A stretch of DNA of 64,000 nucleotides. Origin: Antedon mediterranea. Its lineage: Eukaryota > Animalia > Echinodermata. Numbering within the stretch: position 1 is the first letter of the stretch; each line of letters begins with the position of its first letter. The stretch covers positions 13,054,948 to 13,118,947 of the forward strand of contig NC_092673.1 of the NCBI RefSeq assembly GCF_964355755.1, in the 5' to 3' direction. Below the pieces are notes generated by a model, which was not told the origin of the DNA, did not search any database, and saw only the letters and a program-made list of their open reading frames with translations. This document shows positions 15,121 to 55,649 of this stretch, one piece after another. Position numbers and translations under genes: made by a program.

Positions 15121-15179
15121 GCTCTACCTCTTAAGCCTGTTTTTCTGTCAGTTTTTACAATGATTTAGTCTGAAATGAA

Positions 15180-15490
15180 CCGCTTTACCTGCAGCTTGTG
15201 CTCCATCACTCCATCCATCTTATATTAACTTAGCAAATCTTCTATGGTTGTTTCTGATGCTGGTGGACCAGACCCCCTTATCTCATTATTGAATTTTGCC
15301 CTCAACTTTTCCTTTAATATATTCCACCGATCCCTCACATTTGTTCCATCTAAGTTGATGTCAAAAGATTATTGCTTGCAATGTCTTTCCATACTTTTCC
15401 ACGTTGCTGTGTTCTTTCTCTGTACTGGAAAGGATCCAGTATAATCATCTCCTTCACTAGCTGGTCATCCTTTTCTGTAGACCACTTTGT
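15180..15490 (-). pseudogene. Inverted, decayed second copy of the Myb/SANT exon
   Basis: 15400-15487 is the reverse complement of ~14193-14290 (aagtggtct..gaaaaggatgaccag.tagtgaagga); similarity extends to gctgcaggt at ~15187. Confidence 0.8.
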
Positions 15491-24500: not shown

Positions 24501-26184
24501 TGTAAAAACAATCAATATTGATTGAACAAGTTGTACTGCACATCTAATCAGTTTTGTGAATAAATAAAGTTTATATATATAAATCGGCAAAGTTCAACCA
24601 GGTTCAACATTGCCGATTTGTCTGGGACGAATCGTAACTATTAGCCAATCACACACTGAATATCAGTCGACGTCACTCGCGGCGGGAATCTGCTCTCATT
24701 ATCGATCCACACAACATCGACGATTGCGATAATGATAGCAGCGACAACAAACAGTTTCGACGTGTCTCTTCTTAATTTTGTTGTCTCTACGACAAAGGTT
24801 TGAAGGGATTTAAAGATATGCGAACAAAAAGCAATGCATGGAGTGAGGTTGCGGCAAAACTAGGATGTACTGTTAAAAAATGCATCCAACAGAACTAAAG
24901 TGTCCGGACAACATTTTCTTTGTTAATTTTGTGTTTTTATAGTTTATTTTGTATTTACTGTTTGTATTGTTTAAGGGTCCCTAATGATCAGCTGATGCTG
25001 GATGGACCACCCTCATAAAATATTGTTGGAAAAAAAAAAAAAAAATAGGCACATCTAGCCTAGGCCCTACTAACTAGCTAGGCCTAGTTCGCTAGCGTTC
25101 TCTACCTGCCTGCTGGATTTTGCTTTTTTAGTAGGTAGGCCTAGCCTTATCTTAATGATAAAACCGTAATTTAAAGAAAAATAGTACATTGCCTGGAAGT
25201 CAACGAGTTTTGGTTAAATTTAACTGTTATAGCTAAATCATTTTTGTTAATGTAATTTTTTTTATTTTTCATCTTCCTTAATGCAAATGGTTACAAAAAA
25301 ATTACACTAACTACAACTATGGGCCACAGTTATTGCTTTTGAGGAGTGTACTTAAGTTAAAGAGAGTAATATATTTTTTTTAATAGTTCATACATGGTTA
25401 CATTTACTTTAAAAAGCTTACAAATTCACCCTAAACTAGCAATTTTCTAGTAGCTTTTTCATGATTTCTAGTTTTTCTAATTTTAAAACTAGTATAGTAA
25501 CAATGGTACTTGATTTGCCAATTCTGTAAATTCAATTTTTTTAGAAATTAAAAATGTGCTAGGTCTACTGTAGCTAGCAAAGTTGGGTTACTAATTTCCG
25601 TTCTTTTCCTTACCCTGTTTTATAAACAAAATAAATAGATATGGTTTTTAGGACTTTTGAAATAAAAGAGCTCTATAGGCCTAGTTAGAATAGAATAGAA
25701 GTAGGCATAGAGGCTGTAAAAAAGCTGTACTGTATTTCATCACAAAACTTTACCTAGGTCCTCTTAGACTATTTACAATCACAACTTAGGACTCTTAAGT
25801 CGTGATCGGTAGTGACATGCTTGCATATTATTGACATTATTATTTTTAAGGAAGAGAGCTATTTTATTAGATCTAACTAAGATGAACCAGTCTTCCTAGC
25901 ACATTAAAATCATGACAAATTAGTATTAATATAATCGGACTTTGAATAGGTTGTTTTAGTTTTAATAAAGTTATTAAATATTATCACTTCCATATAGAAA
26001 AAAAAACAAATGTTTTCACTAATAAAATGACAAAATAAATTTAAATGGTTACATTCAACCACAAAACCATTTTGATGATATCTAAATGCTTTAAATTACA
26101 TTTTTTCAGGTAAATAAATTTTTCTTTTTTAGATCCAATTTTTGGTCAAAGTGGATAACTAGGCCTTAGGCATATTCTAGGATG

Positions 26185-27391
26185 CAGACGTTCCAACCCT
26201 CCCGATTTATCCGGGAGTCTCCCGAATTTTAACATCACCTCCCGGTCTCCGAATTTTAAATATATCTCCCGATTTCACACATTTCTATAAAATTAAAATT
26301 CAGTATTATTGCATTAAATTAAAATCTATCTTCCCACGAAAGTTAATATTACAAATTAATTTAATCTCACACGTCGTACGTACCACCCCGTATGATACAA
26401 CGAACATGTATTGTAATGTATGTAAAGATTGTATAGCATAGTACAGCATACTGTAAGGCGACGTCCTTTGTGTTTACCGACAGTATGTGATTCTTACCTT
26501 TAGCGATAAAGCTACAGTATCGCTTTATCAGTAGAGTAGGTGCACGTGTACTGAAAATTTTTCCTGGTTACAAGTTTGACCTAATTCCCATGCCCAGGGA
26601 AGGCATCATCGTCAGTGTAGTAGTAGTAGTACTGTGCGACGTCCTTTGTGTTCACCGACAGTACGCGATGAATCTACAGAATCAGTAGTAGGCGCGCGTG
26701 TACTGAAATTGCTAGTTACAAGTTCTTTGACCCAATTCCAATGCCCAGGCATCGATCGTACCATCGTACAGTACTGTATGTATTATCACTGCGCATGTAC
26801 CGGAAAAGTACTTGTAGTACTGTATTTTGCGTACATACTTTCGTGAATTGCAATCAGTCGTGACATTTTCTGGTTTTACAGTATGTCGGAAAAACGTAGT
26901 AGCGTAGTTTGAGAGACTAAAGAAAGTTGTAAAAAGAAAAAATATAAAACTAGATTTTCTAATGAATGAAAAAATACGTTTCCGTTTGTTAGTGCGAGTA
27001 ATCAACACGCTACCGAGAGTGAATACAAGTTTTTTTGCACTATTTGTAACGTGAATTTGTCATGCTCACAGGGAGGAATCAACAATGTTGCTGTACACTC
27101 CAGTAAGTTGTTTGTTTTAATTTGTATTTTTGTTAATGAATTAATACAACTAAGTACAGATTTGATTTGTACTGTGAATGATTTTTTATTTAAGTGTATA
27201 CAACAATATAAAGTTAGTAAATATAGTTTGATTTATAATCACCAAACAAGTTCTTTTCTTTTTGTTTGTATTACTCTGATTTGCAAAGAGCTGTCTTAAG
27301 ATTCGTGTTGGTAGTACAGTATACTTTTATTCTTGAACGTTGGTGGCGGTATACCCTCCCGATTTTTAATTCATTTAGGTTGGAACGTCTG
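26185..27391 (+). mobile_element. Non-autonomous hAT-like element with 14-bp TIRs and 6-bp TSD
   Basis: cagacgttccaacc...ggttggaacgtctg flanked by aggatg on both sides; subterminal ctcccg repeats; internal zinc-finger exon F..EW..FPF..FFCTICNVNLSC..GG..DV..H. Confidence 0.8.
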
Positions 27392-27544
27392 AGGATGTGA
27401 CATTAAAAAAAATGGCATATTAAAAAAAAAACAAGGGGACAATACATCTTATTGCCTGGGTCTAATAATACTGTACCAAAGGAGATTACAATACCACTAC
27501 TATTAGGCCGCCTACTAATAATATTAGCCTCTAATACAAAACTA

Positions 27545-27935
27545 AAGCTTGTTTTCCATTAAATCGCTACATCATGTCGACATGTATCGCCGACAGTTGT
27601 CCCCGACTTAGGATAGTGATTTTATGGAAACGCTCGTTGTAGGGTGTCAATCTGGTACTAAACTATGCATGCATTGACACCAAAAGCACAAAAAAGGTAC
27701 GTACACACTTACGTAATTTGAAATGGCAGCAATTGCAAGACGTCAAATTTTAATTTTAAAAAATGCTTCTGCTTTTATGGAAGCAAAAAAAGCAAAACCA
27801 ATGTAAAATCAATAAAAAAAAGAAAACATCGATGTTGGGTTAGAAAAATCTACCAAGAACGTACGAAATATGGACAGTACTCGACACTATTTAGAATTCT
27901 AAAAAGTGATGACCGAGAGTACTTTTACAGGTAGC
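27545..27935 (+). pseudogene. Harbinger transposase N-terminal fragment
   Basis: HRCWVRKIYQERTKYGQYSTLF..DDREYFYR followed by a gt splice donor. Confidence 0.5.
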
Positions 27936-28029
27936 TAAGAAAGTTAGTTAGTAAGTTAGTTATCATATTATGGTTAAAATATTATATAGAGAATTCAAAA
28001 CCTAACTATTTTTAAATAAAATATCTTGA

Positions 28030-30655
28030 TATTAGATTCCAAAGCAGCATCTTAATAATGAGCAGTCCTTACAATTAGGAAGACCTGAAAATAAGGAAAT
28101 CGATGAGGCTGAGACCTGTACCCTTTTTTAGGACAATGATGAAGATCTTATAACAATCAATGACTTAAAACACTAAAAATGAAAGAGTTTTGTAAAATTG
28201 TGTTTATTCCTCAAAAGACATGAAAAGAAAATTATCATCATCAATATACGGTACTAAAATTATATTTTCAGAAGTTTAAGTAATTAAGTACAAACAAACT
28301 GCTCGTTTAATCTTTTCATAGAAATCAAAATCAATAAAGGGGATATTGAAGAGCAAAAATTTGAACTAATTGAGGCAGCTGCCAAATTAATCAATAGTAT
28401 TATTATCAATTAAGTATGTCAAAAACTACAAATAATAAGGAATACCCTTTGGATGATGAGTTAACTGTTGAAAATGGTTTGGCCTACCCAGAAGTTTGAG
28501 GATTTTTTGTAAGAAATTATTTGTTGGAAAGGAGACTGAATTAAAGGTAGCATCAATTGGCCAATCAATCATCCAAGCCGCAAGGCCTAGAGCAATTTAT
28601 AGCTCCATTTCAATTGGGCTTTGCCATACAGATGCACCACCATTTCGAATAAAAATACCTAATAAATTCTTTAAATTTACTTTTAAAATAAGTTTTGAAA
28701 TTTGAAGGAAATGCTGTCATAATTAGTATGGATAGGTTGTGTGACGTAGCGCATGATAGCTCAGTTACCTTTAATACTGACAATGTAGACCACAACATTC
28801 AGATTCAGATTCAGATAGAAAGAATACATTCCATGGAATGGGTATGATAGCATGTATCAAAAATGGAAAGGTATAAATATAACATCCGTTCCCAGAAAAA
28901 TTTTCTCAAGCAGTCAGATATCAAAAGCATCTCATGTGAAAATGGTAACCTACCATGAGTCAAGGAACATACTTAATTGTATGAAGCAGACATCCATATC
29001 TGAATGTGTTATATTTCATATTAAATTTTCCTAATGCTCAGATATTGGTACCTTGTTCGTTTGACCAAAATGCTCTGGGCTGTCGGTCACTGCCATCAAA
29101 ATCACTTGCCCATATACTGCCATGCATTCTCCACTAGAGTTTGAGGTGTACCAAAAAACTAATCATTAAATACATGTAACCTAAAAGTGCATGAACTTCC
29201 CGGGGAAACAGCTGCAGATTATACCAAACACATCTCACATATTGCAAATATTGTCTGCTAAATCAAGAATGCGGATGGAGAAGAAATTCGACAGAAAATA
29301 ATCAGATATTGCGAATACTATATAAGAGTCATTGTTAATCATGCCACCACAGCCAGCCTAAATGAAGTTTGGAATATGAGTTGAACTGCCATCTACATCC
29401 TCTGGATTCTATTTCAACTTCATGTACATCTTTAAAACAATTAAAGACAAACATAATGTAACAGGTAATAAGATAATTTTTATTTTCGTATTAAACAAGG
29501 CTAATTTTAACAGATTTTTATTTGGTTAACAAATATTAAAATGTTTTTCTTATTTTAAATTACAGGTGAGCGAATTTATGGATCAGACAGTTCTGCTGGT
29601 CAGTTGTCATTAGCCTTCACAACATTTAAAGATGGTTCAGACACCTAATATACAATGGATAAAAACACTGATCCAATTCCCATACAATACAAAACAGTGA
29701 AAGCCACATAGCAAGCCAATCTTGTGGGACAATCACAGAAAAAAATCTATGACAGTAAAGCCAACAACCAGACTACAATGGACCAATAAAGGTAAGTTAT
29801 GTTAAAACAAGAATGACATTTTGTTTTCACACCTGAACATTAAAGAATACTGTACACTTCAAGAACAGAATGTATATGTCGTAATTAATGATGAAGTTCG
29901 GTAGCTGAATGAAAATTGAAATCCGAACTTCCAATCACGGGTTAAATTTCATTCTTATCAATCTACCAAAGCTGAGGATACCAAATGGATTGGGAAAATG
30001 TTACAAGGAAAGAAACATCAGATACGCCTGCAATAGTTAAGCATATGTTTAAAGTATGTATGGATGTAACAAATATCCATCGCCAGCAGGTGCCAATATA
30101 AAGTGATGATCAACCATTTGCTATTGCAAAGCAGCTTTAATGGCAACATCTCCAGCAATTTGACGAGGACAAGATATTATAAATGATGTGAGGCCTGCAT
30201 ATTGAGCTGGCAATAAATGGTTGGGATATTGCTCTAAAATAGTTGTTGGTCAGAAACAACATCAGGAAGAGCCGAATCATTAACCTTTGCTAAGCATGTT
30301 AAGCATGCTCGGTATGCACACCAGTTTACACTTGTCTCCTTAAAGTTGAGATAACGGGAATAATGAGACTGGATATGGTTGACAAACAAAAAGGGAAAAT
30401 ATCCACAATTTTTTTTTCGGAGATTGAATGAAACTACAGATGGTCTACCTTGCTTTTGTTAGATTTTTAGTTTTATGTTAAAATCATTTTAGCTGTATGC
30501 TTTATGAATATTTTCCTTGAACCAAACTCATTACTAGCGATGGCTACCCATTCATCTGAGAGATATGGTGTAAGATATGGTATAATTATATGGGCAGAAT
30601 TCATGAATGGCAGATTCCAGCAAAACAGTTCTTAAGATGGCCTTAGATCAGGTTG
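28030..30655 (+). pseudogene. Academ-like transposase remnants interrupted by other fragments
   Basis: KVASIGQSIIQAARPR..QMHHHF, DNVDHNI..FHGMGMIA, DQP.FAIAKQL.WQ, GLHIELA, RWLPIHLRDM, KMALDQ. Confidence 0.6.
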
Positions 30656-32033
30656 GAAACTATCTATTTTGTGAAAAATAAAGTTCCATCTAGGGTATGT
30701 GGTTCAGAGTTCACACGGTGTCAGATTTCACACGCCCACCTCATAAATATTCATTTTTAAACAAACCCATCAACCAATCAAAACACTTTGCTCACTGAAC
30801 TGTAAAATTACTTCTCTGCTTCGATCGTTGATCCAAGCAGTGTACAGCAAAACTTTGAATCCAAAAAACCATATTTTGCAAGTCAAGGTAGGTACAAAAC
30901 TTGAATTTTTCTTAATTACGCAATTAGCTAACGAGTATGGGCCACGTGCAAAAGCCCAAAAAATCTAAATTTAAAGAGATATACTTGTAATTTATGATTT
31001 ATATGGTCTTTAATAACTGGCCAAACAAAAATAATTTGTTTGTCTGATGCTTACGTCATCAACCGATTGTAGGGGAGGGTGAGCGAATACCAGGCCACTA
31101 AATCCCAGTTGGGTTCAAAATTCACCCGGTTGGTGGCGCTATATACTTTTTTTATAATGTACTGGTTTTGGGTGATTAGATGCTTCTTAGCCATCTTAAT
31201 TAGGCGTTTTAACCAAATATAACTCAATAAAACCGTTTTTTATTCAATAGCTATAGTCCTAAATATTTAAAAAATTAAATAAATATAAAAATTAAATATT
31301 ATTATTATTATTTTTTTTTTATTACAAATTTATATCAAGAATTAAATCAAGAACATTAAAAAATTAGTACGTGAGGTATATTTCGGAAGCACGTGCGTGT
31401 GGGCCTGCTAACTAATGTTATTTAATTGGCATACTTAATATACATTATTGTGATAAACATTATTCAAATAATCATTAAATTTTCTTTTTTTTTAAAGGTT
31501 ATCTACAGTCATCTTTAATTTCAACAGTATTTATATTTAAATATTTACTTATAACAGTATGTGTACCGTTTATTTTATACAGAGTGTAAATTATATTTTT
31601 TAATATTTAACAATAAATATATAACATTTACGAAGAAAACATTGTTTATTACTTATCATTTTTGTTTGTTGTTATTAACAATACTGCATATCATTTGTAT
31701 TGGAATCCTTCGAACGAGTGTAGCATCAGATATTTTCCCGTGTTAGGATTGGATCGTATAAAATCAAAGATCCATTCGGACATCAGAGAAACAACATCAA
31801 TGAACATACTGATGCTGAAACATCTAAATCACTCATGTATACAATACAGATAAGTTGCTTCTTTAACCCTAAGTGTTAATTGTTTAATGCTGTTGTTTGG
31901 CATATTTATTTTTAACTGTTTTTATGTTGCGTTTTATTGTTCGATGTCATCAAGTTTATTTGTGTTTAGTACTGTATTGTGAAAAAAAAAGAGTTTAAAA
32001 AAATAAACCGTTCATCGTTATTAAACTTTAGAT

Positions 32034-41000: not shown

Positions 41001-42197
41001 ATTTTCAGACAAGCCTCCATTAAACCATGTAAAAATGTGTAAGCAGGTGAACTATGGAACCGATATAGCAACCATGACCATACACTTTTACTGAGGTCAG
41101 AGGATATACAATAAAAGGTCCAGTTAGAAATTCATGTAGTGTTTGTGAGAAAGCTGTGGCAAAAAATGCCTGCCACATTTAATGTTTTATAAGAAAATGT
41201 AGAAGCTGTATTGATGCAAGAGAAAGCATTATTTTGTTAATAATGCTTATAGAAATTAGTTGTGTATGTTTCTGGAGATTAAAAGGATAGCTTAGAGTAT
41301 TTAGTCGAATCTTCTGCACACGGAGTCTCTGAAGTAAAGATAACTGCCTGAGAACGTATTAAAGACCTTCGTCTAACGATATATGAAACGATGTTGCAAG
41401 AATCAAGCCAGTACAGACATAGTTCTCGTTGTTCAGACAAGAAGCAATATGTCTTTGAGACAATGGAAGTTAAATTATTAGATGATGAAGTTGCTTTAAA
41501 GAGAGCATCTACTTCTTGAACCTGTCAAAAGAGGGTGAACACTAGATGGAAACAGACAATAACAGACAATAACAAAGAAGTTCAACTGTTGGCATTGTAA
41601 TTGGAGAGGAGAAGGAGATAGAGAGTGTGCCAAAGTAAGAAAACAGCTGTGGTATATGCTCTGTACGAGAGATTGCGTGATCCAAATTTGTTAATATATT
41701 ATCTTGATTGAGTGAATAAATGTAATTAAATATGTGTGCATTGGGCAAAGCTCTATCAAGTGTAGGTGAACTATTGATGACAAAGTTCAAAATATTGAGC
41801 TCATATATTTCACTTTAAATGCAAATATGTAGAACATTCTGGGTTGTAGGGTAGCTATAGGTAGTAAGTGAAATGTCAAGTGATGTTTATTCGTAATTCT
41901 GGAAGGAATTTTGCTTAACCAAACCATAAAAAGGTAAGAATGGTTGTGAGTTGCCTGGCCCTACATGACAGGAGAAGAAATTGGATAGATTCTACTAAAA
42001 ACAAACAAAATTACCACTAGTATATCACTTTATTTTAGGGGAAGAGTTGATCATCAAAGTTATTTTTAATTAGCATAAGTAGACCTGACCCGGGTGGTAA
42101 ATACTTCTTTACCAAAACTAAAACATTTTTCATTTTAAATAAAATTAAAAATTACGTATTCCAAATATTTCAAATTGAGATACTTAGATTTAACTAA

Positions 42198-43304
42198 TGT
42201 AATATAATGTTGGGTTGTTGAGGTACTAATGAAAGACTCTAACTCGCTTGACTGTCGTAACACATATATTATTTATTCAGTATAATACTTCAGTACAATA
42301 TACAACTATAAGTATAGATAAGGAACGGACAATCAATGATGCTGTCGGTGAGGTGTGAAGTTTGTTAGTCTGCTTCTGGAGAAGTGGCTGTAAGGTGTGT
42401 CTCTGTGAGGTGGCTGTAAGGTGTGTCTGGGCCCTTCTGAAACTTGGGAGTATATTGGCTCAGTTCATTTGCATAATGTCATTACATCATCTGTGAGGGT
42501 AACGATTGGTCCTAAGTTGATCCAGGGGTGTTTAAGTGGGAGTGATTAACGGTATAATAAGGTATTTCTGTGATGGATGACACTTAAATAGTGTCGATCA
42601 CTCCTGGTTTAACGATGGGAAAGTCACAAAATTAAGCTAAGTGTTTTCTTTAGGGATTCTATTATAAACTAAATGGTCATTAAAACATCTGGACAAACTC
42701 TCCTTTGGACTTTCTGGGTCAAGTTTGTGAACCTATTTGAATTCCGATACAAAGGTCAATTTCTTAAATATAAAAGTATATCTTTATATCACATCCCTCT
42801 ATTTCCCTTTTTTTTTTTTCTAATCTATTTAAAATATAAAAATGGTTATAATAGTGGCATGCAAAATTAAAGTTATATAAAAGAAAAAAAACATTATTAT
42901 ACATATAAGCAAAAATTGAGTTAGCCAAAACCATTGACTCTGAAGTGTAACCTTATCACTTTCACTCTCTCTCTTCTCTCTCTTAAAAAAAATGAAATTA
43001 AAAATGAATTTGGTATAAAATTCGCGTAAATCAAACATAAATCAGTTAAAAAATAAAATTACAAAACTTAAAAATAGTATGTTACATTGAACATACATCA
43101 AATCGTGCGACACTCATCGCGTTCTAATGGTCTTCAAACATAAATCATCAAATCAAAACATAAAAATTGAGAAACTGTGGCTGATTAGCCTAAAATCAAA
43201 TATCAAACTTAATCACTTAAAACTTTAAAGGAAACAAATGTGTGTGTCCCGTTGACACAAACTTATCCACAATATATCGTTATCGTCACAACTTTATCGA
43301 TTTA
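42198..43304 (+). repeat. Left inverted arm: segment T (42198-43023) joined directly to segment B (43024-43304)
   Basis: T is the reverse complement of 51823-52649; B is the reverse complement of 50185-50457. Confidence 0.93.
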
Positions 43305-43702
43305 AGCATTTATATTTACAGGTAATTACGATTTCAATCGGTCGGCAAATTCGACTTTTGTACTCAATGTCAAAAAAAATTACAATTAAAAGTACTAAGA
43401 AAATCTCCTGTTATTGTATATCAATTAATTAATGCTTGAGATTAACGACTCAAAGGTTAAACAAAATATTTGTTACAAAATGATTGTCGTTCTTTTCAAT
43501 ATCTCAATATATCGATCATCAAAATTCAAAATTAATCATTATCAAAAAACTCGTTACAAAATCAATTCTTAAACATAAATTCAATTCTCTTTTAACTGAA
43601 ATCACATCATTACTAAACAAATCTCATCAAATACGTAGACTATGCTATCATTAATTTAGCAAATGTCGTAATTTAAAAATAATCTTGCAAAAAAAATTTA
43701 AA

Positions 43703-45617
43703 TCAGTAATTCGTTGCATTATACAAGCGTTTTATGAATCGTTTTGGCGATCCACTTATCGGTATCTGTTTATCATTAATGATCTCTTTAATCAATTTAT
43801 CTGTATCGTTATATCTGTCAATATTCCACCAAAATTTGCGATCATTAGATTCGTGTTTTGTTTTATCAGTGTTGCGTTTGGCTGAAGTCGGTTTAGAATA
43901 CGAAACTAAAACTTGGAAATGTCCTGCTTTAAATCTACCTCGGTTTAATGTCATAATTGAATCATTAGGTGCTGTCATAATTAGATTAGTTTGTTCCTTG
44001 ATTTGTTCTTCTTTCATTTGGAATGGGGCTGCTAATCCCATGTTATTCTCTACACAGTCAATGTAAGGTTGCAAGTTAAGGGGTTCTACTTTAGTTGGAT
44101 GTGTAAGGGTATCTGATTGCAATTGGGTGGGTGTCCTATCATGTTCGTCTACAAATTCAACATTGGTTTCGTCATTTACTACATTAATGGTGTTTTGGAT
44201 TTTCTCGTTATTATCATCAGTGGGTTCATTCAACAATTGTTTAAGTTTTTGGAGATGTGTAAAATTTTTGCGTTCTTTGGGTGTTCTCATAAAACAGGGT
44301 TTCAGTCTGTTATAATTGAATACGTCGCGAAGTATTTCTCCTTTAATCGTCGCTAGGATGTAGTGTGTTCTGTCTAGTACTTCATGAATCACTAATGGTC
44401 CGACCCATTCTGCGGCGATTTTCTTTGAATTTGCCGTTAGTGATGATGATGTTGGCTTGTATAAATATACGAGTTGTCCTACTGAGCAAATTGGACATTT
44501 TTCTAAGCGTTGGGAAATTTTTGAGTTTTGGACGTTTTGTTGTGTTCGCTGTAATTGTAGCATTGTCTGTGAAATGTTTTGAAATTTCTTCTTGAGATGT
44601 TCAAAGTATTCTTCATAGGAATGAGACAATCCTGAAATAGGGTTAAATGCTAATGAGGTCAAACTTGGAGGTTGGCGGCCAAAAACTAATTCGTAAGGGG
44701 AGTGGTTTCCTAGATGTGGGGATGAAAACGAGTTATAAGCATAACATGTTGTTGATACAAATCTAACCCAATCTGTTCCGAATTGGTTAAGGTTGACCTT
44801 TAACAGGTCCGATACGGTGCGGATATGACGTTCAACTTGTAAACTACCGTGATTGTGGACGCTGATGATTTTCCTATCAATATTAAGGGTGTTACATAAT
44901 AGTGTTAATAATTTTCCTGTAAGGGAGGTTGCTGCATCTGAAATAAGACGAGATGGTGGGGGTCCAAAAATACTGATGACCTTTTGAATTAGTGCTTCAC
45001 AAATTGTTTCGGCATCAATGGATTTCAAAGGTACACAAATCAAAAATCTAGTTATCTCATCACATACTACCATAATATGTTTAAAACCTGAAGGTGATGT
45101 TGGCATACTCTTAAAATCTAGACTGAGTGTATGAAAGGGACGGTAAGTTGCTGGTACTCGATCGTGTAAAGGACGTAATTTATCGGTTTTGGGACGAAAT
45201 TGTTGACATCTAAGACACGCTTGGGTATAATTGTTGACTTTCTCGAACATAAGGCATGTAAAATAATTTCCTAATAGTAAGGTAAGTACGCATCGTACCT
45301 TGGTGGCTACTTAACAAATTGTCGTGATACTGAGAAATAATAGTCTCTGCTAAGTTTTCAGGAACAGCTAATTGCAATACAAATTCTCCACCTTTATCTT
45401 GGAAAAATAAACGGAATAGTAAACCGTTGCACAATATGTACTGCTCTGACTTATTCTGAACTGCACGAGCTGCTTTCTTATCAGCTGGAAGGATATCATG
45501 AACTAAATAATCGTAAACTGGCTTAAAAAATGGTGAAGTTTCTTGTTCAACACGTAATTGTTTAACATCTACTGGGAGGTTATAATCTCTAATTATCTTT
45601 CTTTGAATAACATCCAT
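43703..45617 (-). pseudogene. pol: Gypsy-type DDE integrase (HHCC zinc finger, catalytic core, GPY/F-like motif, long C-terminal tail); frameshift near 45250
   Basis: YHDNLLSSHQG..ACLRCQ; LSLDF..VVCDEITRF..LISDAA..QVERHIRT; SPYELVFGR; WVGPLVI. Confidence 0.92.
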
Positions 45618-45625
45618 TAATCTAT

Positions 45626-46246
45626 CTAAGTCTTGTTTTTTGGGATGTGTGCTGACTTAAATTCAGTTATGTTGGGTACTAGTGGTTTGGGCGATGTATA
45701 CAATTCAACTGGTACGTTTCGATGTGTAGTGTCTTTGCTTTGCTTATTTTTGTCTACTAGTCGTTCCTCTGGAGGTTGTCGAATGTTTACATTACGTATT
45801 GGGGGTGGCGTTACGATAGGTGGCGTTATGATAGGCGGTGATCGATGTGCGTTTGTTTGTTGTCTCGTGATTATCTGTGGTGTAGCGGTAGGTTGAGGTG
45901 TAGGTCGCGTGTTTGTTGTCACTGGATTTTGATTAATGACGGGCGTTTGTACTGGTTTGGGTTTATGTAGGTCAGGTATATTTATTCCCATTTTCTTGGC
46001 GTATGACCTTGTTACTGGTCTGCTAGTAGATGTGTTTGTAATCGGGTTAAGAGATTCAGTCTCTGTAATATTAAATGCAATGGGTACAACTTGATCAATT
46101 TCGGAATCGTCGTCACGAGGGGCTCGGGAGAGAAAATCTGCTAAAACTAATTCAGTTCCTTTCTTATAACCAATTTGGAAAATGTATCCGGACAATCGTA
46201 ATATTAGTTTCTGTAGACTGATCTTTTGAATTCCAAATTTGTACAA
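45626..46246 (-). pseudogene. pol: RNase H C-terminus plus Pro/Thr-rich linker of pol (frameshifted on both sides)
   Basis: LQKLILRLSGYIFQIGYKKG..LADFLSR, RPVTRS, then a P/T-rich tract. Confidence 0.85.
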
Positions 46247-48398
46247 TTGCTGAGTGGTCTACGAATGCATCAAATTCGCAACCCTTTAGTAAGTGTCGAA
46301 ATGCTGAAACGTTAATGTAAAGTCCAAATAACTCTAGTTCTGTGACGCTATATCGTTGACAGGCTTGTGGTAAGATTTTGGAATAATAACCTATTATGTG
46401 TTCTTTACCGTTTACTGTTTGTGTTAAATATGAACCTGTTGCGGTTCTTGAAGTGTCGCTATATAGCGTAAATCTACCTTCTTTTCTAGGCATTTGAAGA
46501 GTTGGTGGTTTAACCATTAATTGTTTAATTTCGTCAAATGCTTTCTGGTGTTCAGTAGACCAACAAAATTTTCGGCGTTTGCTTGCGAGTGTGTGTAACG
46601 GACGTAAAATTGATTGTATTTGAGGGAAAAAATGGGATACATAATTTACTGCACCAATAAGTCGTTTAGTTTCTATATGGGTTCGTGGGACTGGCAAATT
46701 TCGGATAGCTGCACACCTGTCGCCTAATGGTGTGATACATGCGTGTCCTGAAGAATTAATCAGGATGGTGTGTCCCATATATTGCACTTTATTCTTGAAT
46801 AACTTACATTTCTTTGGACAAATTCTAAAACCATTTAATTGTAGGGCTTGTAAAACGGAAACGAGGTGCTGCTTATGAGCAAATTTGTCTTGGCTAAATA
46901 AAATAATATCATCATGATGGGCGATACAGAATTCTCTAGAATTTGGGATTTCATTTAAAATTTCGTCAATCTTTGCTCGAAATATACCTGGTGAAACGTT
47001 TAATCCTTGTGCTAATCTCTTATAATAATAATGTTTTCCACCATGATATGAAGCTATACCTGTATATTGTTGGGCATGTTCGGTTAATGGTACACAGTGG
47101 AACGCTGATTTCAAATCAATTACGCTAAGAATCTGTGCATTAGCGTTACCTATTGTTTTCAAAGTTTCGGCTAATAATGGGAATGGGTGATTAATACGTT
47201 TTATCCTGGAATTTAGATAGCGAAAGTCTGTGACAACTCTTTTATCTTTTGAATTTTTCTTTGAAACAAGAAGGACAGGGGAAGTATACGATTGGTGTCC
47301 TACTGCTAAGATTCCTAGTTTGACTAATTTGTTCAATTCGGCCTCAATAACATGTTTGTCTTTGTCTGTCGCGAAGTATGGTCGAATAAAAAATGGTTCA
47401 TTGTTAGAGAGGTGTATGTCAGCTTTGAAGTTTGGGCAGCTAGATAGTTCACCATAAAGTGAAAATGCGTTTCTGTTTTGTTGTAAGGTTTTATACAAAT
47501 CTTCTTTTTCTCTATGTGTTAAAACGCTGTCTGTTAAATCAACTTGTTTTCTAATTATTTCTTCCTCGGTTAAAGATAGCAATGGGTCTGTACGTTCTAA
47601 ATGTGGGTACTTGTTTGCGTTGTCATTGGTCAACTTTATTCTATCAATTGGTAGGTCGTTAGTAACTGTTACAAGGTTGGTTAAGTGAAGGCTCGCGATA
47701 GGTTGATGTGTATTTAGAGATACGTTTCTGTTTGTGTTGTTAGTGATATCAATGTTGGTTTCTCCTCTATGTAATTTTACTAACATGTCTGATGGACAAA
47801 GTTTTGAAATATGGGTGGTTGCATGTAGAACAACATCAGAATTGCGTACGAAGGCGGGAACCCTTCCTTTTAATTTAACTGTTTTAGTATCACCGTGTTT
47901 AAGAAAAATCTTGTGTACTGGACAAAAGCTAAAAATCTTTGGTCTAATGCGAAATGTGTTTTCCTTAAAATTTAAAGTACCGTCGAGTTCAGACAATGTT
48001 TCGGTTCCAAGTATCAGGTCGATACCTGTCAAATTTTTAACGATTAATGCTGAAATTTTAAATTTGTGTCCTTGGATAAATAATTCGAATTGCACTAAGT
48101 GGTTGGCATATAAGAAGTCACCGTTACCTAATCGAAGTTTGGTTGTGTTCACTTTAACTGGCTTTAAACGCGATAAATAAAGTGAGGAATTAACGTACGA
48201 TTGTGAGATTATAGTTCTAGTTGAACCACTGTCAAATAAAGTTAAAACATTTCTACCATCTGGTAAATTTCCTTTAACGTAATTTCTGTCGTTAAGTAAC
48301 AAATCAATATTATCTGAGTTCCCTAAGTATTTTGCCTTAAAATTGTCGTATTTAGTATGGGGGGCCAGATTATAGGCGGCATCTAGTCCCCTTTTTAA
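46164..48398 (-). CDS. pol: Pol: aspartic protease, reverse transcriptase, RNase H
   Basis: LFDSGS (protease); RVVTDFRYLN, IDLKSAFH, LAQGLNVSP, AHHDDII (RT); LYSDTS, YSVTELE, FVDHSA (RNase H); frame open from the gag stop region. Confidence 0.95.
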   Translation of the reverse strand, partial: LKRGLDAAYNLAPHTKYDNFKAKYLGNSDNIDLLLNDRNYVKGNLPDGRNVLTLFDSGSTRTIISQSYVNSSLYLSRLKPVKVNTTKLRLGNGDFLYANHLVQFELFIQGHKFKISALIVKNLTGIDLILGTETLSELDGTLNFKENTFRIRPKIFSFCPVHKIFLKHGDTKTVKLKGRVPAFVRNSDVVLHATTHISKLCPSDMLVKLHRGETNIDITNNTNRNVSLNTHQPIASLHLTNLVTVTNDLPIDRIKLTNDNANKYPHLERTDPLLSLTEEEIIRKQVDLTDSVLTHREKEDLYKTLQQNRNAFSLYGELSSCPNFKADIHLSNNEPFFIRPYFATDKDKHVIEAELNKLVKLGILAVGHQSYTSPVLLVSKKNSKDKRVVTDFRYLNSRIKRINHPFPLLAETLKTIGNANAQILSVIDLKSAFHCVPLTEHAQQYTGIASYHGGKHYYYKRLAQGLNVSPGIFRAKIDEILNEIPNSREFCIAHHDDIILFSQDKFAHKQHLVSVLQALQLNGFRICPKKCKLFKNKVQYMGHTILINSSGHACITPLGDRCAAIRNLPVPRTHIETKRLIGAVNYVSHFFPQIQSILRPLHTLASKRRKFCWSTEHQKAFDEIKQLMVKPPTLQMPRKEGRFTLYSDTSRTATGSYLTQTVNGKEHIIGYYSKILPQACQRYSVTELELFGLYINVSAFRHLLKGCEFDAFVDHSAIVQIWNSKDQSTETNITIVRIHFPNWL

Positions 48399-48404
48399 AA
48401 ATCC
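48360..48404 (-). promoter_or_regulatory. Putative -1 ribosomal frameshift signal between gag and pol
   Basis: Minus strand G GAT TTT TAA, then GGGGACTAGAT-loop-ATCTGGCCCCC hairpin 6 nt downstream; pol is in the -1 frame and open from this point. Confidence 0.75.
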
Positions 48405-49360
48405 TGCTGGTGGCTAGGGTAGTAATTGTTTGACTGTTGGTATGGGTATGGCGGGGGATAGTTTCCGTAAGAGCGGTTTTGTTGTCGGCAGTGCCTTGCT
48501 ATGTGGCCTGGTTTCCCGCAGTAATAACAGGTTGGGGGAGGTTGTCTATATCTTGGGGTCGGTGGGGTCTGGAATCGGGGTTTGTATGGGCTTGGGCTTC
48601 GGTTTCGTCTTGGGATATAATTTCGGGTGGGGGAACGTGAGCGTCGAGTATCATCATTAAGGGATCGTTTTGTTGTGGCCATGTCTAACTTGAGAGAATT
48701 TATCTCATGTTGGAGCGATTCGAGACTATTAGGCCTATCTGTTTCCTTATTGATATTGAATGAAACTTCCCGTGTGGCATCATCTACGGAAAGGTCAAGG
48801 TAATTTTGTGTGCTATTTACAATATTTTCAATAGTGGCATCGATTGGGGTGGACATGGCTACAGCTGCTCTACATTTTGGTGGAAGGGTCGAAATAAATT
48901 TATTCTTTATCTGCTGGTCAGCGTATCCAATTCTGTCTGCGGCTTGTTTGATTTTGGTTAAGTGCTTTTCGGCGTTGTCGCCAGTGGTGTATGTAATTGA
49001 ATCGTATTCTCTTATGTGCGCATAGATTGATTTGTTTTTACTAAACCTGTTGATGAATTGGGTTTTTAAGGATTCTAGTGAATCGAACTGCTTTCCCTCA
49101 ATCCAGAGTCTAGCTTGGCCCTGAAGGCTACGTTTAAAAATACTTATTACATTAATTAATTGGGCATTGTTTACAGGGTTTTCTAAAGTGTGGGCCTCAA
49201 GGTAGTCGGTAAACGATAAGTAGTGTGCACTACATTGGTCGTGATCGGTTATGGAACCGTCATATCTTTTGGGAAGGAAATCGGTTTGTCTTAGGTGGGG
49301 CACGGGGTGAGGATTGACGGGCTCATTTAAAATTACTTCGTTATCAACAACGTCGACCAT
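48395..49360 (-). CDS. gag: Gag with CCHC zinc knuckle
   Basis: 321 aa, uninterrupted; FKRSLQGQARLW..LKTQFINRF capsid-like motif; RS/P-rich linker; CYYCGKPGHIARHC. Confidence 0.93.
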   Translation of the reverse strand: MVDVVDNEVILNEPVNPHPVPHLRQTDFLPKRYDGSITDHDQCSAHYLSFTDYLEAHTLENPVNNAQLINVISIFKRSLQGQARLWIEGKQFDSLESLKTQFINRFSKNKSIYAHIREYDSITYTTGDNAEKHLTKIKQAADRIGYADQQIKNKFISTLPPKCRAAVAMSTPIDATIENIVNSTQNYLDLSVDDATREVSFNINKETDRPNSLESLQHEINSLKLDMATTKRSLNDDTRRSRSPTRNYIPRRNRSPSPYKPRFQTPPTPRYRQPPPTCYYCGKPGHIARHCRQQNRSYGNYPPPYPYQQSNNYYPSHQQDF

Positions 49361-49692
49361 ACTTTATAATATTAATTATTAATCAAATATCAAAAACAAT
49401 TTAGTGTATATGTAAACTCTCACTTTTTCAATAAAGGTTACAAATCAAGATTCGAAATGGTTTCGACTTACCCCAAATGCTTCGGATCCAATTAAAATGA
49501 ATTAAAAGAATGCAAAAGTGTTCAAAAATGTTTAAATGTTCAAACAACGAATTAAAAAAAATGCGAAAGGTGTTCATCAATGTTCAAAAAAGTAAATGTT
49601 AAAAAAAACGATCGAAAAAAAAACGGCGTGAAGTTGAAAGTCTCTAAACGAAACAGTTCTTGTCCGCTTGCTTCTGTTTTGATTCTTCTTGG

Positions 49693-49899
49693 GTCTTCCT
49701 CGATTATCTTCTTTGTCTTTATCCAATGGTTATAATTTCATAAAATTTCTGCTTGTCTCGATTTCATTCAAATATATAATTTCAGCTTGTCTTTTGTGTC
49801 TTCCTCGATTATCTTCTTTGTCTTCATCCAATGGTAATAATTTGATAAAATTTCTGCTTGTCTCGATCTCATTCAAATATAATTTCAGCTTGTCTTTTG
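49693..49899. repeat. Tandem duplication (~105 bp x2) in the gag leader
   Basis: gtcttcctcgattatcttctttgtct... at 49693 and 49798. Confidence 0.9.
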
Positions 49900-50011
49900 A
49901 GTCAAAGTAAATTTCTCTCCTTTCAAACAAATGTGGTTATTTTTGTCTTTGTCTTCGTCTTCGTGTCTTGTTAAGTGTTTATTTCTTGTTTTCTCACTCC
50001 GTTCCTTATGA

Positions 50012-50029
50012 AATTTGGGTCTTCCACCA
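50012..50029 (-). promoter_or_regulatory. Candidate primer-binding site
   Basis: TGGTGGAAGACCC.. immediately follows ..TATATTACA on the gag-sense strand; TGG is complementary to tRNA 3' CCA. Confidence 0.7.
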
Positions 50030-50184
50030 TGTAATATAATGTTTGGTTGTTGAGGTACTAATGAAAGACTCTAACTCGCTTGACTGTCGTAACACATATA
50101 TTATTTATTCAGTATAATACTTCAGTACAATATACAACTATAAGTATAGATAAGGAACGGACGGTCAATGATTGATGCTGTCAG
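50030..50184 (+). repeat. Internal direct copy (segment A, R/U5-like) of the left terminus 42198-~42348
   Basis: tgtaatataatgtt.ggttgttgaggtactaatgaaagactctaactcgc...taaggaacggac; contains AATAAA on the gag-sense strand. Confidence 0.95.
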
Positions 50185-50457
50185 TAAATCGATAAAGTTG
50201 TGACGATAATGATATATTGTGGATAAGTTTGTGTCAACGGGACACACACATTTGTTTCTTTAAAGTTTTAAGTGATTAAGTTTGATATTTTGATTTTAGG
50301 CTAATCAGCCACAGTTTTCTTGAGTTTTATGTTTTGATTTGATGATTTATATTTGAAGGCCATTAGAACGCGATAAGTTGTCGCGCTATTTGATATATAT
50401 TCATTGTACATATTCTCTAAGTTCTTTAAATTTGACCAATTGACGTTTGATTAACGC
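50185..50457 (-). repeat. Segment B of the right arm (inverted copy of 43024-43304)
   Basis: taaatcgataaagttgtgacgataa.. pairs with ..ttatcgtcacaactttatcgattta; more diverged distally (gtttgattaacgc vs gcgtaaatcaaac). Confidence 0.9.
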
Positions 50458-50722
50458 TCGAGGGAGGAGTAGAGCCAATTACGAGCTATATATATAAACA
50501 ACCGGATGAGCAGACTATAAATAAGTCGCACGAGCGTATCAAATATACAGTATTTACTGTCGAATTATAAGTTAATTTACTTTTGTGAGATTGTTATAAT
50601 AGTTGAACTTGAAATTTTATTGTTTGAGTTTTATATCGTTTATTTAGTTTAATATTGTTTATTTTAAATACATTTTAATTTTATTTATCTTAATTTTAGT
50701 CAATTCCAAATTTCCCCCTAAA

Positions 50723-51598
50723 ATGGAATCCGAAAAGCTTGACGTTACACAGTTATGCTTAAAACACAAAATTCAAATGACGCCCCTGTCCACAGAATGT
50801 GCCCTTATAAAGAAGATAATCCTTTACCAAAGCGAACAAAACGTAATTCTCCATATTACCAAAATGATGCCATTTACTTTAGATTCCTTGAAAAGAGTTT
50901 TATTATTCCTTTGCGACATCCGTCCAGCAGACCAACTGACAAACCTCAAATTAAATACCCTTTTACACATTGGCAGTTATTTATGTTGTTTCGACAAAAT
51001 GTCCTCCCCCATTATAGACTACATTTGGAAGCATAAGAGTGAACCAGCCCTACTTGACTTTTCCACAATCGACCTTTCCATTAATCTAGACGGCATCGCC
51101 ACTTGTATACCAAACACACATGAATTTCACAGAAAACATATTTATTCTATGACCCTCCTGCTCTTAGCAATTACAAAAGACATCAAAGCCCCACAATGCA
51201 CAACATTTTTTTCAAGAGTCCGACAACAAACAGGCATCATACCCCAAGACGAATTAAAACCTAGCGAACACTCACCATTTGGATATGTTGTAACTAAATA
51301 TAAGAAAAAACTATATTCGCACATTCGTAACATGCAGTACCTGGAAAATAAATACCAAGATACCCCCTGCCAAATTTGTCAATGTAACCCCGAAATTAAA
51401 AACTTTCATACTGATTGTACAATCAACAAATGCTGCGGAACATTGTTTCACAAAAATTGCCAACAAATAAACAAGAAATACCAATGCTTGAATTGCGGTA
51501 TGGTATATTTGAATGAGATGCCTTACACTGCTACCTACATATTGGACGACGGCACACTGTGGACTACATCCCATTATTATCGATTATTATATGATTGA
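50723..51598 (+). CDS. Accessory ORF antisense to gag-pol; C-terminal RING/PHD-like Cys/His cluster, possible BTB-like N-terminus
   Basis: Uninterrupted 291 aa; CQIC..KCCGTLFHKNC..CLNC; upstream TATAAA (50517) and cagt (~50548). Confidence 0.75.
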   Translation: MESEKLDVTQLCLKHKIQMTPLSTECALIKKIILYQSEQNVILHITKMMPFTLDSLKRVLLFLCDIRPADQLTNLKLNTLLHIGSYLCCFDKMSSPIIDYIWKHKSEPALLDFSTIDLSINLDGIATCIPNTHEFHRKHIYSMTLLLLAITKDIKAPQCTTFFSRVRQQTGIIPQDELKPSEHSPFGYVVTKYKKKLYSHIRNMQYLENKYQDTPCQICQCNPEIKNFHTDCTINKCCGTLFHKNCQQINKKYQCLNCGMVYLNEMPYTATYILDDGTLWTTSHYYRLLYD

Positions 51599-51822
51599 TT
51601 TCAATTTATCCTTTATAAATTTTTTTTCTATTTCAAATAATTAACGAGAGTCGACTTCTTGACCGATGTTTTTTAGGGAAACCCAACCGTTGTGATGTTT
51701 ATATTTCGGTAATCCGAGTGTAGCATGCCTCCAAAGCAACGGACCCACAATTATGTCGATCTTGAAGAACACTTTTGTTTTTTTTATATACATTTTTTGT
51801 TTCAAATTTTATATAAATTCTG

Positions 51823-52649
51823 GAATTTTTATACCAAATTCATTTTTAATTTCATTTTTTTTAAGAGAGAGAAGAGAGAGAGTGAAAGTGATAAGGTTAC
51901 ACTTCAGAGTCAATGGTTTTGGCTAACTCAATTTTTGCATATATGTATAATGTTTTTTTTTTCTTTTATATAACTTTAATTTTGCATGCCACTATTATAA
52001 CCATTTTTATATGTTAAATAGATTAAAAAAAAAAAAAAAGGGAAATAGAGGGATGTGATATAAAGATATACATTTATATTTAAGAAATTGACCTTTGTAT
52101 CGGAATTCAAATAGGTTCACAAACTTGACCCAGAAAGTCCAAAGGAGAGTTTGTCCAGATGTTTTAATGACCATTTAGTTTATAATAGAATCCCTAAAGA
52201 AAACACTTAGCTTAATTTTGTGACTTTCCCATCGTTAAACCAGGAGTGATCGACACTATTTAAGTACAGATTTGACAGTGTCATCCATCACAGAAATACC
52301 TTATTATACCGTTAATCACTCCCACTTAAACACCCCTGGATCAACTTAGGACCAATCGTTACCCTCACAGATGATGTAATGACATTATGCAAATGAACTG
52401 AGCCAATATACTCCCAAGTTTCAGAAGGGCCCAGACACACCTTACAGCCACCTCACGGAGCACACACCTCACAGCAGACCTACACACTTCACACCTCACT
52501 GACAGCATCATCGAATGTCCGTTCCTTATGTATACTTATAGTTGTATATTGTACTGAAGTATTATACTGAATAAATAATATATGTGTTACGACAGTCAAG
52601 CGAGTCAGAGTCCTTCATTAGTACCTCAACAACCCAACATTATATTACA
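51823..52649 (-). repeat. Right terminal inverted repeat (segment T)
   Basis: Reverse complement of 42198-43023 with a few substitutions, an ~11-bp indel near 52267 and a diverged patch at ~52455-52520. Confidence 0.95.
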
Positions 52650-52670
52650 CTAATGATGCCTAATGCCAGT

Positions 52671-54552
52671 TAGTCAGGTGGCTTAACAACAAAAAATGAG
52701 GAAATCGTTACACGGTGGACAAAAGCGCCAAATTTGGCATGGAGCTTCGTTGGGACCTACCAATTGATTTTTGCCTAGGAGCCACTCTGGTCGCAATTTA
52801 TTTTTCAAGATGGCGGCCAAAATCCAAAATGGCCGCCAATATATTGGAAAATCACATTTAATTTGTTACAGAAGTCACATATAGGCAAATGAACTATCAA
52901 AACATAAGTATTCATGGTCATTAAAACATATTTTAGACATGTTGCATAAAATGGGTCATTCGTTGTTAAGATGGTGGCTAAAATCCAACATGGCTGCCAG
53001 TAGCCTAAACTGGAATATCATTCTCTGGTTGCAGAAATCGCATATATCAAACGAAGTAGGAAAACACATGGAGTAGGCCTAATCATGGTCATTGAAACAT
53101 ATTTTAGACATGGTACATAATATAGGTCACTCGTTGCAAAGATGGTGGGAAAAATCCAAAATGGCTGCCAGTAAACTAGGAAATCACATACAGTATCTGT
53201 GGACGGCAGAAGTAATATGTAAATGAAGTAGCTGTAGTAAATGGTAGAGGTGGTATGTAAATTACAAGTAACTGTAAAAAAATCTATAAAAAAAAGTTAT
53301 AACCAGTTCAGTTTCTGAAACCACATAAAATGTGGTATTTTTGGGAAAATAAAGATTGAGGGCGCTGTTCACATAAGTAAAAGTACACTTTTCTACCTGT
53401 AACTAACTAAGTTTTTGTCAGAACATTTGTTAAATGGTCTTATTTGATAGATAATTACATTTTCTTTATATTAAAGAAAACAAATTTTACATTAAATATC
53501 CATAGTTCAGATAAATTTACGTTAAGTGCCTAAAATCAGCAAATATAACACATTTTAATACATAACAAATACTATTGGATGTTAGCAAATTACAAATTTA
53601 GTTATCATAAATAGGATTCTTTTACATTTTCATAGAAACTGTTTTATTATAAAACATATAAATATATATTTATCTAACAATTTCTCATAAAAAAACTTTT
53701 ACGACCACTAGTTTTCGAGATATAGAAATGTGTACTTCCAGTACAGGTCAAAGGTCAATAACAAGAATCTGGGTCATTTTCTTGGAAAAGTTTGTATTAG
53801 ACTGAATAGAAACATCCATCTTCTGATTAATTTGAGACCTATTTAAAGTTTGTCCAACTGTTAGGTACCACGTTATATGACATAGGTCAAAGGTCAAAAA
53901 TACCAAAAATCATACTTCCGGCCATTTTTTGACAAATTTTTCCATTAGGACGAATATTAATATGCATCTTCCAAATAATTTGACACTAAAATTATTTAAT
54001 TTAATGTAAGCGTTTAGGAGATATGGTTATTTTGTTTTCAATTGGATTAAAATATTCAAATTGAGGTCAAAGGTCAAAGAAAAACATTAGAAATTTGATA
54101 ACATGGGTTTTTATAACTAGCATGGTTAAAAAATTCATAAAATGCAATCCTTGGACTTTCCTTCTGATTTGCAGACTAAAATACATTAGGAATGGACTAT
54201 TTGTGACTTTGTATACGATTATATATGTATTTCAATTTCAATGGCTACCACTTTAAATTTTGGGCGCCATCTTGGAACTCATTTTATATAATATTTCCTG
54301 AATTGGTTTTACTGACTTCAGAAATTCTTGATTCAGTACATTATTTGTCTATTTGTAACTTTTACAGCCAGAGATATATGATATACCAATTTACTGGCAG
54401 CCATTTTGGATTTTGGCCGCCATCTTGGAAAATCGGAAGCTGATCGGGTGGCTCCTAGGCAAAAATCAATTAGTACGTCTAAAAGAAGCCTCATGCAAAA
54501 TTTGGTGCTTTTGTCCAACTTGTAACGTTTTAGTCGCTAAGCCACCTGACTA
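52671..54552. mobile_element. Non-autonomous DNA transposon, probably Academ (TAG termini, 3-bp TSD)
   Basis: tagtcaggtggctta...taagccacctgacta, imperfect TIR of at least 170 bp; agt duplicated at 52668-52670 and 54553-54555; empty site cc-agt-aggcc at ~22311. Confidence 0.85.
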
Positions 54553-55649
54553 AGTAGGCCTAATGTAAAAGGGAATGAAGTTCCTGTATCAAATCTAACA
54601 AAGGAAGATGCACTCAAGAAGGAGAGTTGTTATTTGAAGATATGAAATAGTTTATTCTTTGTAATTTCCTAGGATTTTTAAAATCCATTAAAAAATCATC
54701 ACAGAGTATACTAGCATGCTAGTTGGTTGTGAGATGAACTGTTAATTAAGTTATGTGTGGGGATGATGATAAAGGTCATCATTTTTTCAATGGGTCTATT
54801 ACCTCAAATTGTAGAAACAATCTGGAACAGGTGCACAAGTTGTACAAGAGGGTTATATAAAAAGAGCAATACATTTATTATACTGTACATGCATTTGCCG
54901 ATACTTTAGAACTATGGAAGGCAAAAGTTAGGTTCGACAAGCAGAATGGCTTTTTTTTTAATGGAGAGCAATGCATTCACCTTTTTATTTTCCATATTTC
55001 AGTTGTACCAAGAATGTACCTTGAATGTAGCAAGCTGAAATCGATGAAACCCACAAGATTTATTATGAAAAACATGCCTAAAATCTCTAAGAATATGTGT
55101 TTCTTTCCTGGATAACATTCATCTATCGAACCAAACAGTCTACCACCTTTTGGTAAGCATGAATTGAAATGTCTAGCAAATAAAGCAAATTTTTTATTGT
55201 TGCTTAACACTCAAAGTTTAGAATGATATCTATGCTGAAGGGTCCACAAAAAACTAAGCCATGCAAAGAGTAGACATTTAAATGTTATAAAAAAAAGAAA
55301 GAATACATTCAAAGTTATGTTGGTATAACTTTAAAAAAAGTAGTTTTACTACTAAAGATTACAGTAATTTAGAATGCAATTTTATTGAAAAAAAAAAGAA
55401 AACATATACAAAAATGTGGCTCAATAGCCCAAATTCATTTTAATCAAGCTAAAAGATAGAGATATAAATATATATATAATACAATATAGATAATTTATTA
55501 CTGTCCGGGTTAAAGTATGGTTGAGGAACAGAAATTTGATGCTTTCAGCAACACCACTCTGTGGCTGCATGTATAAGGTAAGAAGTTTTTTCAAACAAAT
55601 TAGCATATAAACCTACAAAGAAGCAGATGACTTTAAAAAAACACTGAGA

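Follow-up and report, generated by a model that had tools for sequence, protein, structure and literature searches.

A Ty3/Gypsy element of Antedon mediterranea with inverted U5-type termini and a putative internal R-U5/primer-site junction: possible replication from two divergent RNAs

The stretch of Antedon mediterranea DNA analysed here (64,000 nucleotides of contig NC_092673.1, referred to as the window) contains a Ty3/Gypsy retroelement whose two termini are inverted with respect to each other and are both of the U5 type, and which carries a further copy of its terminal sequence internally, upstream of gag and beside a site resembling a primer-binding site (PBS). We call the terminal and internal repeat segment A, with positions (A37 etc.) counted from the terminus, and its internal copy the stub. 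With high confidence, we regard the stub as the R-U5/PBS region of the gag-pol RNA; it resembles the R-U5 portion of a 5' LTR followed by its primer site, and the left terminus would be the matching 3' LTR. Judged by its signals, everything from the stub onward is an ordinary LTR element, missing only its 5' U3. We propose that the element replicates in this inverted-end form from two divergent RNAs, whose tRNA-primed minus strands would be joined to give two U5 ends, a proposal to which we give nearly as much credence as doubt. Whether or not by that route, we lean slightly towards a layout that is heritable and not accidental. The coordinates of all features are collected in Table 1.

Table 1. 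Features of the element and of its insertion site, numbered from the first nucleotide of the window
Feature	Position	Strand	Remarks
Whole Ty3/Gypsy element	42198..52649	-	10,452 bp; TG...CA ends; both ends U5-type
Target-site duplication CTAA, left copy	42194..42197	.	4 bp
Target-site duplication CTAA, right copy	52650..52653	.	4 bp
Empty insertion site, single CTAA	22295..22298	.	other copy of the segmental duplication
Left inverted terminal arm	42198..43023	-	826 bp
Inferred 3' LTR of gag-pol RNA (U3-R-U5)	42964-42198	-	767 bp; in left arm
T8 + 20 purines, then TG: polypurine-tract candidate, left arm	42965..42992	-	
Repeat B, left copy	43024..43304	-	joined directly to left arm
14-nt motif resembling the element's terminal 12 nt	43307..43320	-	2 nt upstream of left B; no purine tract before motif
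pol: protease, RT, RNase H, integrase order	43703..48413	-	broken into four frames
gag with CCHC zinc knuckle	48395..49360	-	
Stem 3' arm, in leader	49998..50009	-	21-32 nt past stub
PBS-like site	50012..50029	-	starts TGGTGGAAG directly after the CA of the stub
Segment A, internal copy (stub)	50030..50184	-	inferred R-U5: ~20 bp of U3 end, R, U5
AATAAA in stub	50104..50109	-	also 42277-42272 (-) and 52570 (+)
Stem 5' arm, closing R-U5-PBS domain	50150..50161	-	12 bp
Repeat B, right copy	50185..50457	+	abuts stub
Cassette, right arm only	50458..51822	+	1365 bp; between right B and right terminal arm
ORF2, intact 291-aa orphan frame in cassette	50723..51598	+	orientation away from gag
Right inverted terminal arm	51823..52649	+	
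T-run + purine tract identical to that of left arm, then TG	51855..51882	+	
767-bp U3-R-U5 unit in right arm	51883-52649	+	faces outward, behind ORF2

The element satisfies the description of a Ty3/Gypsy retrotransposon in its gag, the PR-RT-RH-IN order of its pol, its TG...CA ends and a target duplication within the 4-6 bp of that group, and departs from it in lacking a direct pair of terminal LTRs: the 826-bp termini are inverted, and only 151-155 bp recur directly, at the internal site. CTAA flanks both ends and occurs once at the empty site, which lies in the duplicate of the host region; the entire structure therefore entered in a single integrase-type event. The open reading frames of the element match, in order, the Pfam families zf-CCHC, RVP_2, RVT_1, RT_RNaseH, Integrase_H2C2 and rve, and the best solved-structure match of its reverse transcriptase is that of Ty3 (4ol8, E=7e-49). 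A search with Pol returned 72 matches, the closest named ones being from the limpet Patella caerulea (51%; KAK6175915.1) and the sea cucumber Apostichopus japonicus (57%; PIK34594.1 / XP_071851461.1). The pol frame changes, near 46200, 45640 and 45250, may reflect decay or sequencing error. The reverse transcriptase (window 48413-46164) has the catalytic motif HHDD in place of YxDD, as do eight of nine aligned relatives, the ninth having VHDD; HHDD is thus a possible marker of the clade. The end of gag and the start of pol (48395-48413) lie in a -1 frame relationship across GGATTTT, a sequence that recurs at 2736-2742 of one related locus (L003), as would suit a natural frameshift site. The gag leader of the element (49684-49903) and those of two related loci (L001 1-139, L003 132-550) contain tandem duplications of about 45-175 bp. 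Four metagenome loci with a related Pol (44-60% identity), whose sequence does not extend to termini, show no internal inverted repeats over the stretches covered, and no relatives were found by Pol alignment or integrase in viral contigs or in prokaryote genomes (0 loci in each). Matches to the junction pattern itself, seven viral and four bacterial, were rejected as relatives, as they have no further similarity.

The initial annotation had noticed that some 155 bp of the left terminus recur at 50030, and alignment together with blastn bears this out: the 155-bp stub is a direct repeat of 42198-42348 (151 bp; E 3e-67) and an inverted repeat of the right terminus, 52499-52649 (E 4e-61). It had also recognised an AATAAA in this copy, which is present at 50109-50104, and a junction of the LTR-end/PBS type. 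The junction is as described; on the minus (gag-sense) strand the stub ends in TATATTACA and is followed without a spacer by TGGTGGAAG, reading from 50029 downward. TGG follows a given position of the window at a background frequency of 1.3%, and TGGTGG at 0.025%. The LTR motifs used for comparison are set out in PMC3601003.

No tRNA genes are found in the 64-kb window. Of 120 viral loci matching the tRNA-end pattern, 31 hold tRNA genes whose ends would pair over 11-12 nt with the PBS (29 Ser, 1 Ala, 1 unassigned); as viral and not host tRNAs, they demonstrate the existence of such an acceptor stem and no more. The tRNA-Ala proposed earlier is a candidate that fits the G3:U70 and A73 pattern over the first 7 nt of the PBS. 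Base 16 of the PBS lies opposite the near-invariant C61 of the tRNA, and a match over the full 18 nt is therefore ruled out if the primer is a canonical tRNA. PBS assignment is dealt with in PMC10886601. An 11-nt stretch of U5 (50059-50069), which includes the variable site A37, can pair by wobble with 50019-50029 of the PBS, and the resulting hairpin would hide the PBS.

It had further been claimed that tRNA priming is retained in the absence of a shared U3. That absence does not hold: each arm has a 767-bp U3-R-U5 unit preceded by a T-run and a purine tract, the two units being inverted relative to each other, and U3 is missing only directly upstream of the stub. Each arm has one such combination of T-run, purine tract and TG, within the arm and some 30 bp from its inner edge, and the window has no others. 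A T-rich box preceding the purine tract is a retroviral feature; the tract is a candidate primer and could alternatively be an AG microsatellite. Inward of the terminal arms, a second inverted repeat (B), overlooked in the initial annotation, starts exactly at the end of the internal segment A. The gag-sense order of the parts is inverted [B-ORF2-PPT-U3-R-U5], R-U5 stub, PBS, gag, pol, B, PPT, U3-R-U5, with PPT denoting the candidate polypurine tract. The left arm is the right arm minus the 1365-bp cassette. The motif upstream of left B is two single-base insertions away from the first 12 nt of the element; comparable sites number 33 in 128,000 nt (P about 0.008 per 30-nt stretch, for a motif noticed post hoc). 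The motif may stem from an ancient LTR end or from a former A-B junction.

The cassette encodes ORF2, whose C-terminal cluster of Cys and His residues has, by eye, a spacing like that of a C4HC3 RING/PHD finger. Homologs of ORF2 were not found: there was no Pfam match above the cut-off, none among 258 candidates, none among 1.84 billion representatives and no usable Atlas match. A fold match to a viral RING-type protein (E=0.057) was discounted, as the single-sequence models were poor (pLDDT 45.0 and 39.7). In one related locus (L002 5217-5807), an ORF resembling GDSL/SGNH hydrolases (E=1.3e-5, under the Pfam cut-off) lies behind pol in the sense direction and is preceded by a 43-bp tandem array; an accessory ORF in this place marks a position from which the right arm can plausibly be derived. 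We suggest, more as a conjecture than an expectation, that the element represents a marine-invertebrate lineage of integrase-bearing Ty3/Gypsy elements with a two-segment RNA genome, in which the accessory gene would be carried on the second RNA and not behind pol.

The region around the PBS also suggests where the gag-pol RNA begins. A121-132 pair perfectly with the leader downstream of the PBS, and a stem of at least 11 bp arises in only 15 of 3000 shuffles of the leader and in 12 of up to 3000 random 60-mers from the window. The 173-nt R-U5-PBS domain closed by this stem folds with z = -3.24, equalled by one of 200 shuffles. In Ty1, the 5' end of the RNA pairs with sequence past the PBS. 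Directly beyond the stem (A134-150) all three copies of segment A are variable, and variability is expected near the end of a template. We place the probable start of the gag-pol RNA near 50161.

The copies of segment A differ at nine variable sites or events over 155 bp. In four of them (37, 44, 120 and 138) it is the right copy that departs from the other two, in three (15, 134 and a 4-bp insertion) the internal copy and in one (150) the left copy, while all three differ at 135. The three diagnostic sites on which the internal and left copies had been paired by strong-stop transfer (A37, A44 and A120, where internal equals left and the right differs) are thus real, but are only three of the nine, and chance alone would place three of four core sites on the right copy with a probability of 0.11; the count was rejected as proof of the pairing. 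The pairing itself is better served by A120. The leader past the PBS pairs over 12 bp with the left and internal allele and over 13 bp with the right allele, and since it pairs one base further with the right allele, the left and internal copies are suggested to share a derived base at A120. This leader pairing supports the strong-stop link better than the raw count of sites.

The differences between the arms appear to be mostly older than the insertion. The arms differ by 16 substitutions, 7 indels and the 1365-bp cassette. Of the substitutions, 10 lie in the outer 210 bp and 6 in the remaining 616 bp (P=0.0017, at a boundary picked post hoc); they occur in blocks around a run of 370 bp that has no substitutions and one 14-bp indel (P=0.001). 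From this run, drift since insertion is probably below about 0.6%, and on that bound most copy differences were likely already present in the templates; host gene conversion could be an alternative source of the run. The two copies of B are nearly identical over their inner 130 bp and strongly diverged beyond, where up to about a quarter of the bases differ (3 differences in the inner 130 bp against 28 in the next 143; Fisher P=4e-6, again with a boundary picked post hoc). By this pattern, the cassette-bearing and cassette-free arms would have been separate for long, and yet exchanging or constrained at the end that touches segment A. The internal and left copies differ by 3 to 4 changes in the 23 bp beside the A-B junction, and the probability of at least three such changes arising there after insertion is 0.0004-0.004.

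In its proteins and mode of insertion the element behaves as a Ty3/Gypsy retrotransposon. With Ty3/Gypsy elements (Metaviridae) it shares the zinc-knuckle gag, PR-RT-RH-IN, TG...CA, the 4-bp duplication, an R-U5 with AATAAA followed by TGG and a purine tract before the U3-R-U5 unit; it differs from them in its inverted terminal repeats, its two U5 ends, a primer site 2.6 kb inside the element with no U3 upstream of it, and an extra ORF in the inverted arm that faces away from gag. Inverted termini combined with an internal complementary sequence, and an RT/RNase H related to Ty3/Gypsy, are shared with DIRS1-like elements, as described in PMC3266345 and PMC5633606. According to these sources, DIRS1 itself has a tyrosine recombinase, a circular intermediate, NTT ends, no target duplication and two short internal complementary regions (ICRs) near its 3' end, whereas the present element has a DDE integrase, TG...CA, a 4-bp duplication and a single 155-bp internal copy, situated upstream of gag beside the PBS. 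No match to the recombinase family was obtained on the six ORFs scanned, while the rve integrase is present, and DIRS1-like membership was rejected on the rve integrase, the CTAA duplication and the TG...CA termini.

Self-priming, as in Tf1/sushi elements, was likewise considered. There, the first 11 nt of the RNA are complementary to a PBS abutting U5. The element shares with this system a putative RNA 5' end that pairs over 12 bp with sequence downstream of U5, but the pairing partner lies 21-32 nt past U5 and not at its border, and the border carries TGG as for the CCA end of a tRNA. Self-priming at the U5 border is unsupported, as the only upstream complement of the PBS is the 11-nt wobble match in U5 described above; because that match lies inside U5, it cannot be the 5' end of the RNA if R is upstream.

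A gypsy-type element with a gag-pol including integrase, long terminal inverted repeats and a second ORF has reportedly been found in the hemichordate Saccoglossus kowalevskii; to our knowledge, an internal R-U5/PBS stub, a repeat B or a two-RNA model has not been described for it. In the literature covered, which included few subscription journals, we found no description of a gypsy element that combines an integrase, inverted termini and a primer site in its interior, and the passages of PMC6431247 consulted mention no such element.

We propose the following series of steps for replication from two RNAs. The first RNA (RNA1) would start in the stub near 50161 and run through R-U5-PBS-gag-pol-B-PPT-U3-R, and the second (RNA2) would begin in the stub or inner B, cross ORF2 in the opposite direction and finish with the same PPT-U3-R sequence. 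A tRNA bound to the only PBS would prime a short strong-stop DNA corresponding to segment A, which could jump to the 3' end of either RNA, gag-pol or ORF2. The 3' ends of the two resulting minus strands would overlap within A or inner B, where the strands would anneal, each then serving as template for extension of the other. Both DNA strands would then begin at a tRNA-defined TG, and integrase would receive two U5 ends, while short plus strands primed from the two purine tracts would allow RNase H to remove both tRNAs. Both ends look tRNA-defined, because both carry the sequence adjoining the PBS, and the identity of left and internal sites where the right differs is allowed if the two RNAs came from different copies.

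Such a route, the simplest of those that could be repeated, would reproduce the order of the parts exactly and would give a use to the purine tract in each arm. In its favour are the insertion as a single unit, the signals of RNA1, the left-internal linkage, the old asymmetry of the arms, the intact ORF2, the accessory ORF behind pol in a relative and the presence of one purine tract per arm. Against it, the layout is known from one copy, and the pol of that copy is broken at three places. The signal set of RNA1 is complete, so that ordinary reverse transcription would yield a normal element with direct LTRs; the only candidate reason for this normal product losing out, a weak one, is the poor match of TGAAAG to the U5 end. 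Nor does simple exchange between two RNAs predict that the arms match right to the cassette breakpoint nearest the PPT, which needs selection on that stretch.

The complete signals of RNA1 are equally what would be expected if the structure were a one-off reverse-transcription chimera, produced in a family with ordinary direct 767-bp LTRs, some variants of which carry ORF2 behind pol and some not; we consider this the main rival and a realistic possibility, while doubting it. Within one particle, the minus strand of an ORF2-less variant, having proceeded 155 nt into its 5' LTR, would jump to the minus strand of the other variant at the start of B and copy that strand as far as it goes; the product, with a U5 at either end, would have been integrated once. 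The arms resemble mosaics of alleles differing by about 5%, as expected for two members of one family, the short likeness to segment A just upstream of left B could have guided the jump, and divergence of B toward the cassette breakpoint is expected of old ORF2-plus and ORF2-minus variants. Such an accident would, however, require a single round to have produced the 3 to 4 changes seen over 23 bp of the internal copy (reverse-transcription errors do cluster at transfer sites), and two long-diverged variants to have been active and packaged together. It also sits uneasily with divergence on one side only of the cassette breakpoint, and the gypsy element with inverted termini reported from a hemichordate would, if confirmed, favour a family.

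It is unlikely that the layout is inherited through one long gag-sense RNA starting in the right arm, with a use of inverted ends similar to that of DIRS-1. Here, the primed DNA would be halted where A ends, by B paired with its inverted copy, and would transfer to the 3' end; once complete, the minus strand would fold back on its own 5' end, completing the right terminus. B begins exactly at the end of A, its copies pair at -350 kcal/mol (trivial for inverted repeats), its inner part is its best-conserved, and a single RNA is simpler to package. The fold-back predicts, however, that the outermost parts of the arms are the most alike, and they are the least alike (10/210 bp in the outer part against 6/616 in the inner); the stem between stub and leader argues for an RNA that begins within the stub, and the long RNA would contain an 800-bp duplex. 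We give hardly any credence to a host rearrangement after insertion, or an assembly artefact such as a fold-back read, through which a portion of a normal element became inverted. Although the window has large duplications and the pol frame changes may be sequencing errors, the complete structure lies between the two CTAA copies, the empty site shows a clean single CTAA, and the divergence of the arms and of B is far above what an artefact or the age of the insertion allows.

The surroundings of the element are themselves repetitive. A direct segmental duplication (15668-31752 versus 35931-64000, 95.7-99.6% identity) has its second copy interrupted by the retroelement and by a 1.9-kb element with terminal inverted repeats (TIRs), and could alternatively represent two uncollapsed haplotypes. 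This TIR element (~52669-54553), some 20 bp from the right terminus, has terminal repeats of ~16 bp and longer subterminal inverted repeats, has no long ORF, is missing from the duplicate site and is probably a non-autonomous DNA transposon. Further inverted-repeat pairs with arms of 31-117 bp (14194-15487 and 20136-20435) are probably small DNA transposons, and a tandem array with a 62-bp period, mostly 98-99% identical, occupies 8403-9260.

Textbook reverse transcription yields direct LTRs, the tRNA defining one end of the DNA and the purine tract the opposite end. The anatomy of the present element predicts two RNA starts near 50160 and a recurring A-B junction. The two-RNA route would be new if further copies confirm it; a one-off copying accident is possible, and the element would then be a well-preserved record of a template switch accepted by integrase, of modest interest. 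If the report from Saccoglossus is real, the inverted layout is already known and is more likely to be heritable, and the priming anatomy would still be new. An integrase-bearing element inherited with two tRNA-defined ends would, if true, need a different second half of the replication cycle, and would bridge the LTR and DIRS-type layouts in a form missed by LTR finders that require direct repeats.
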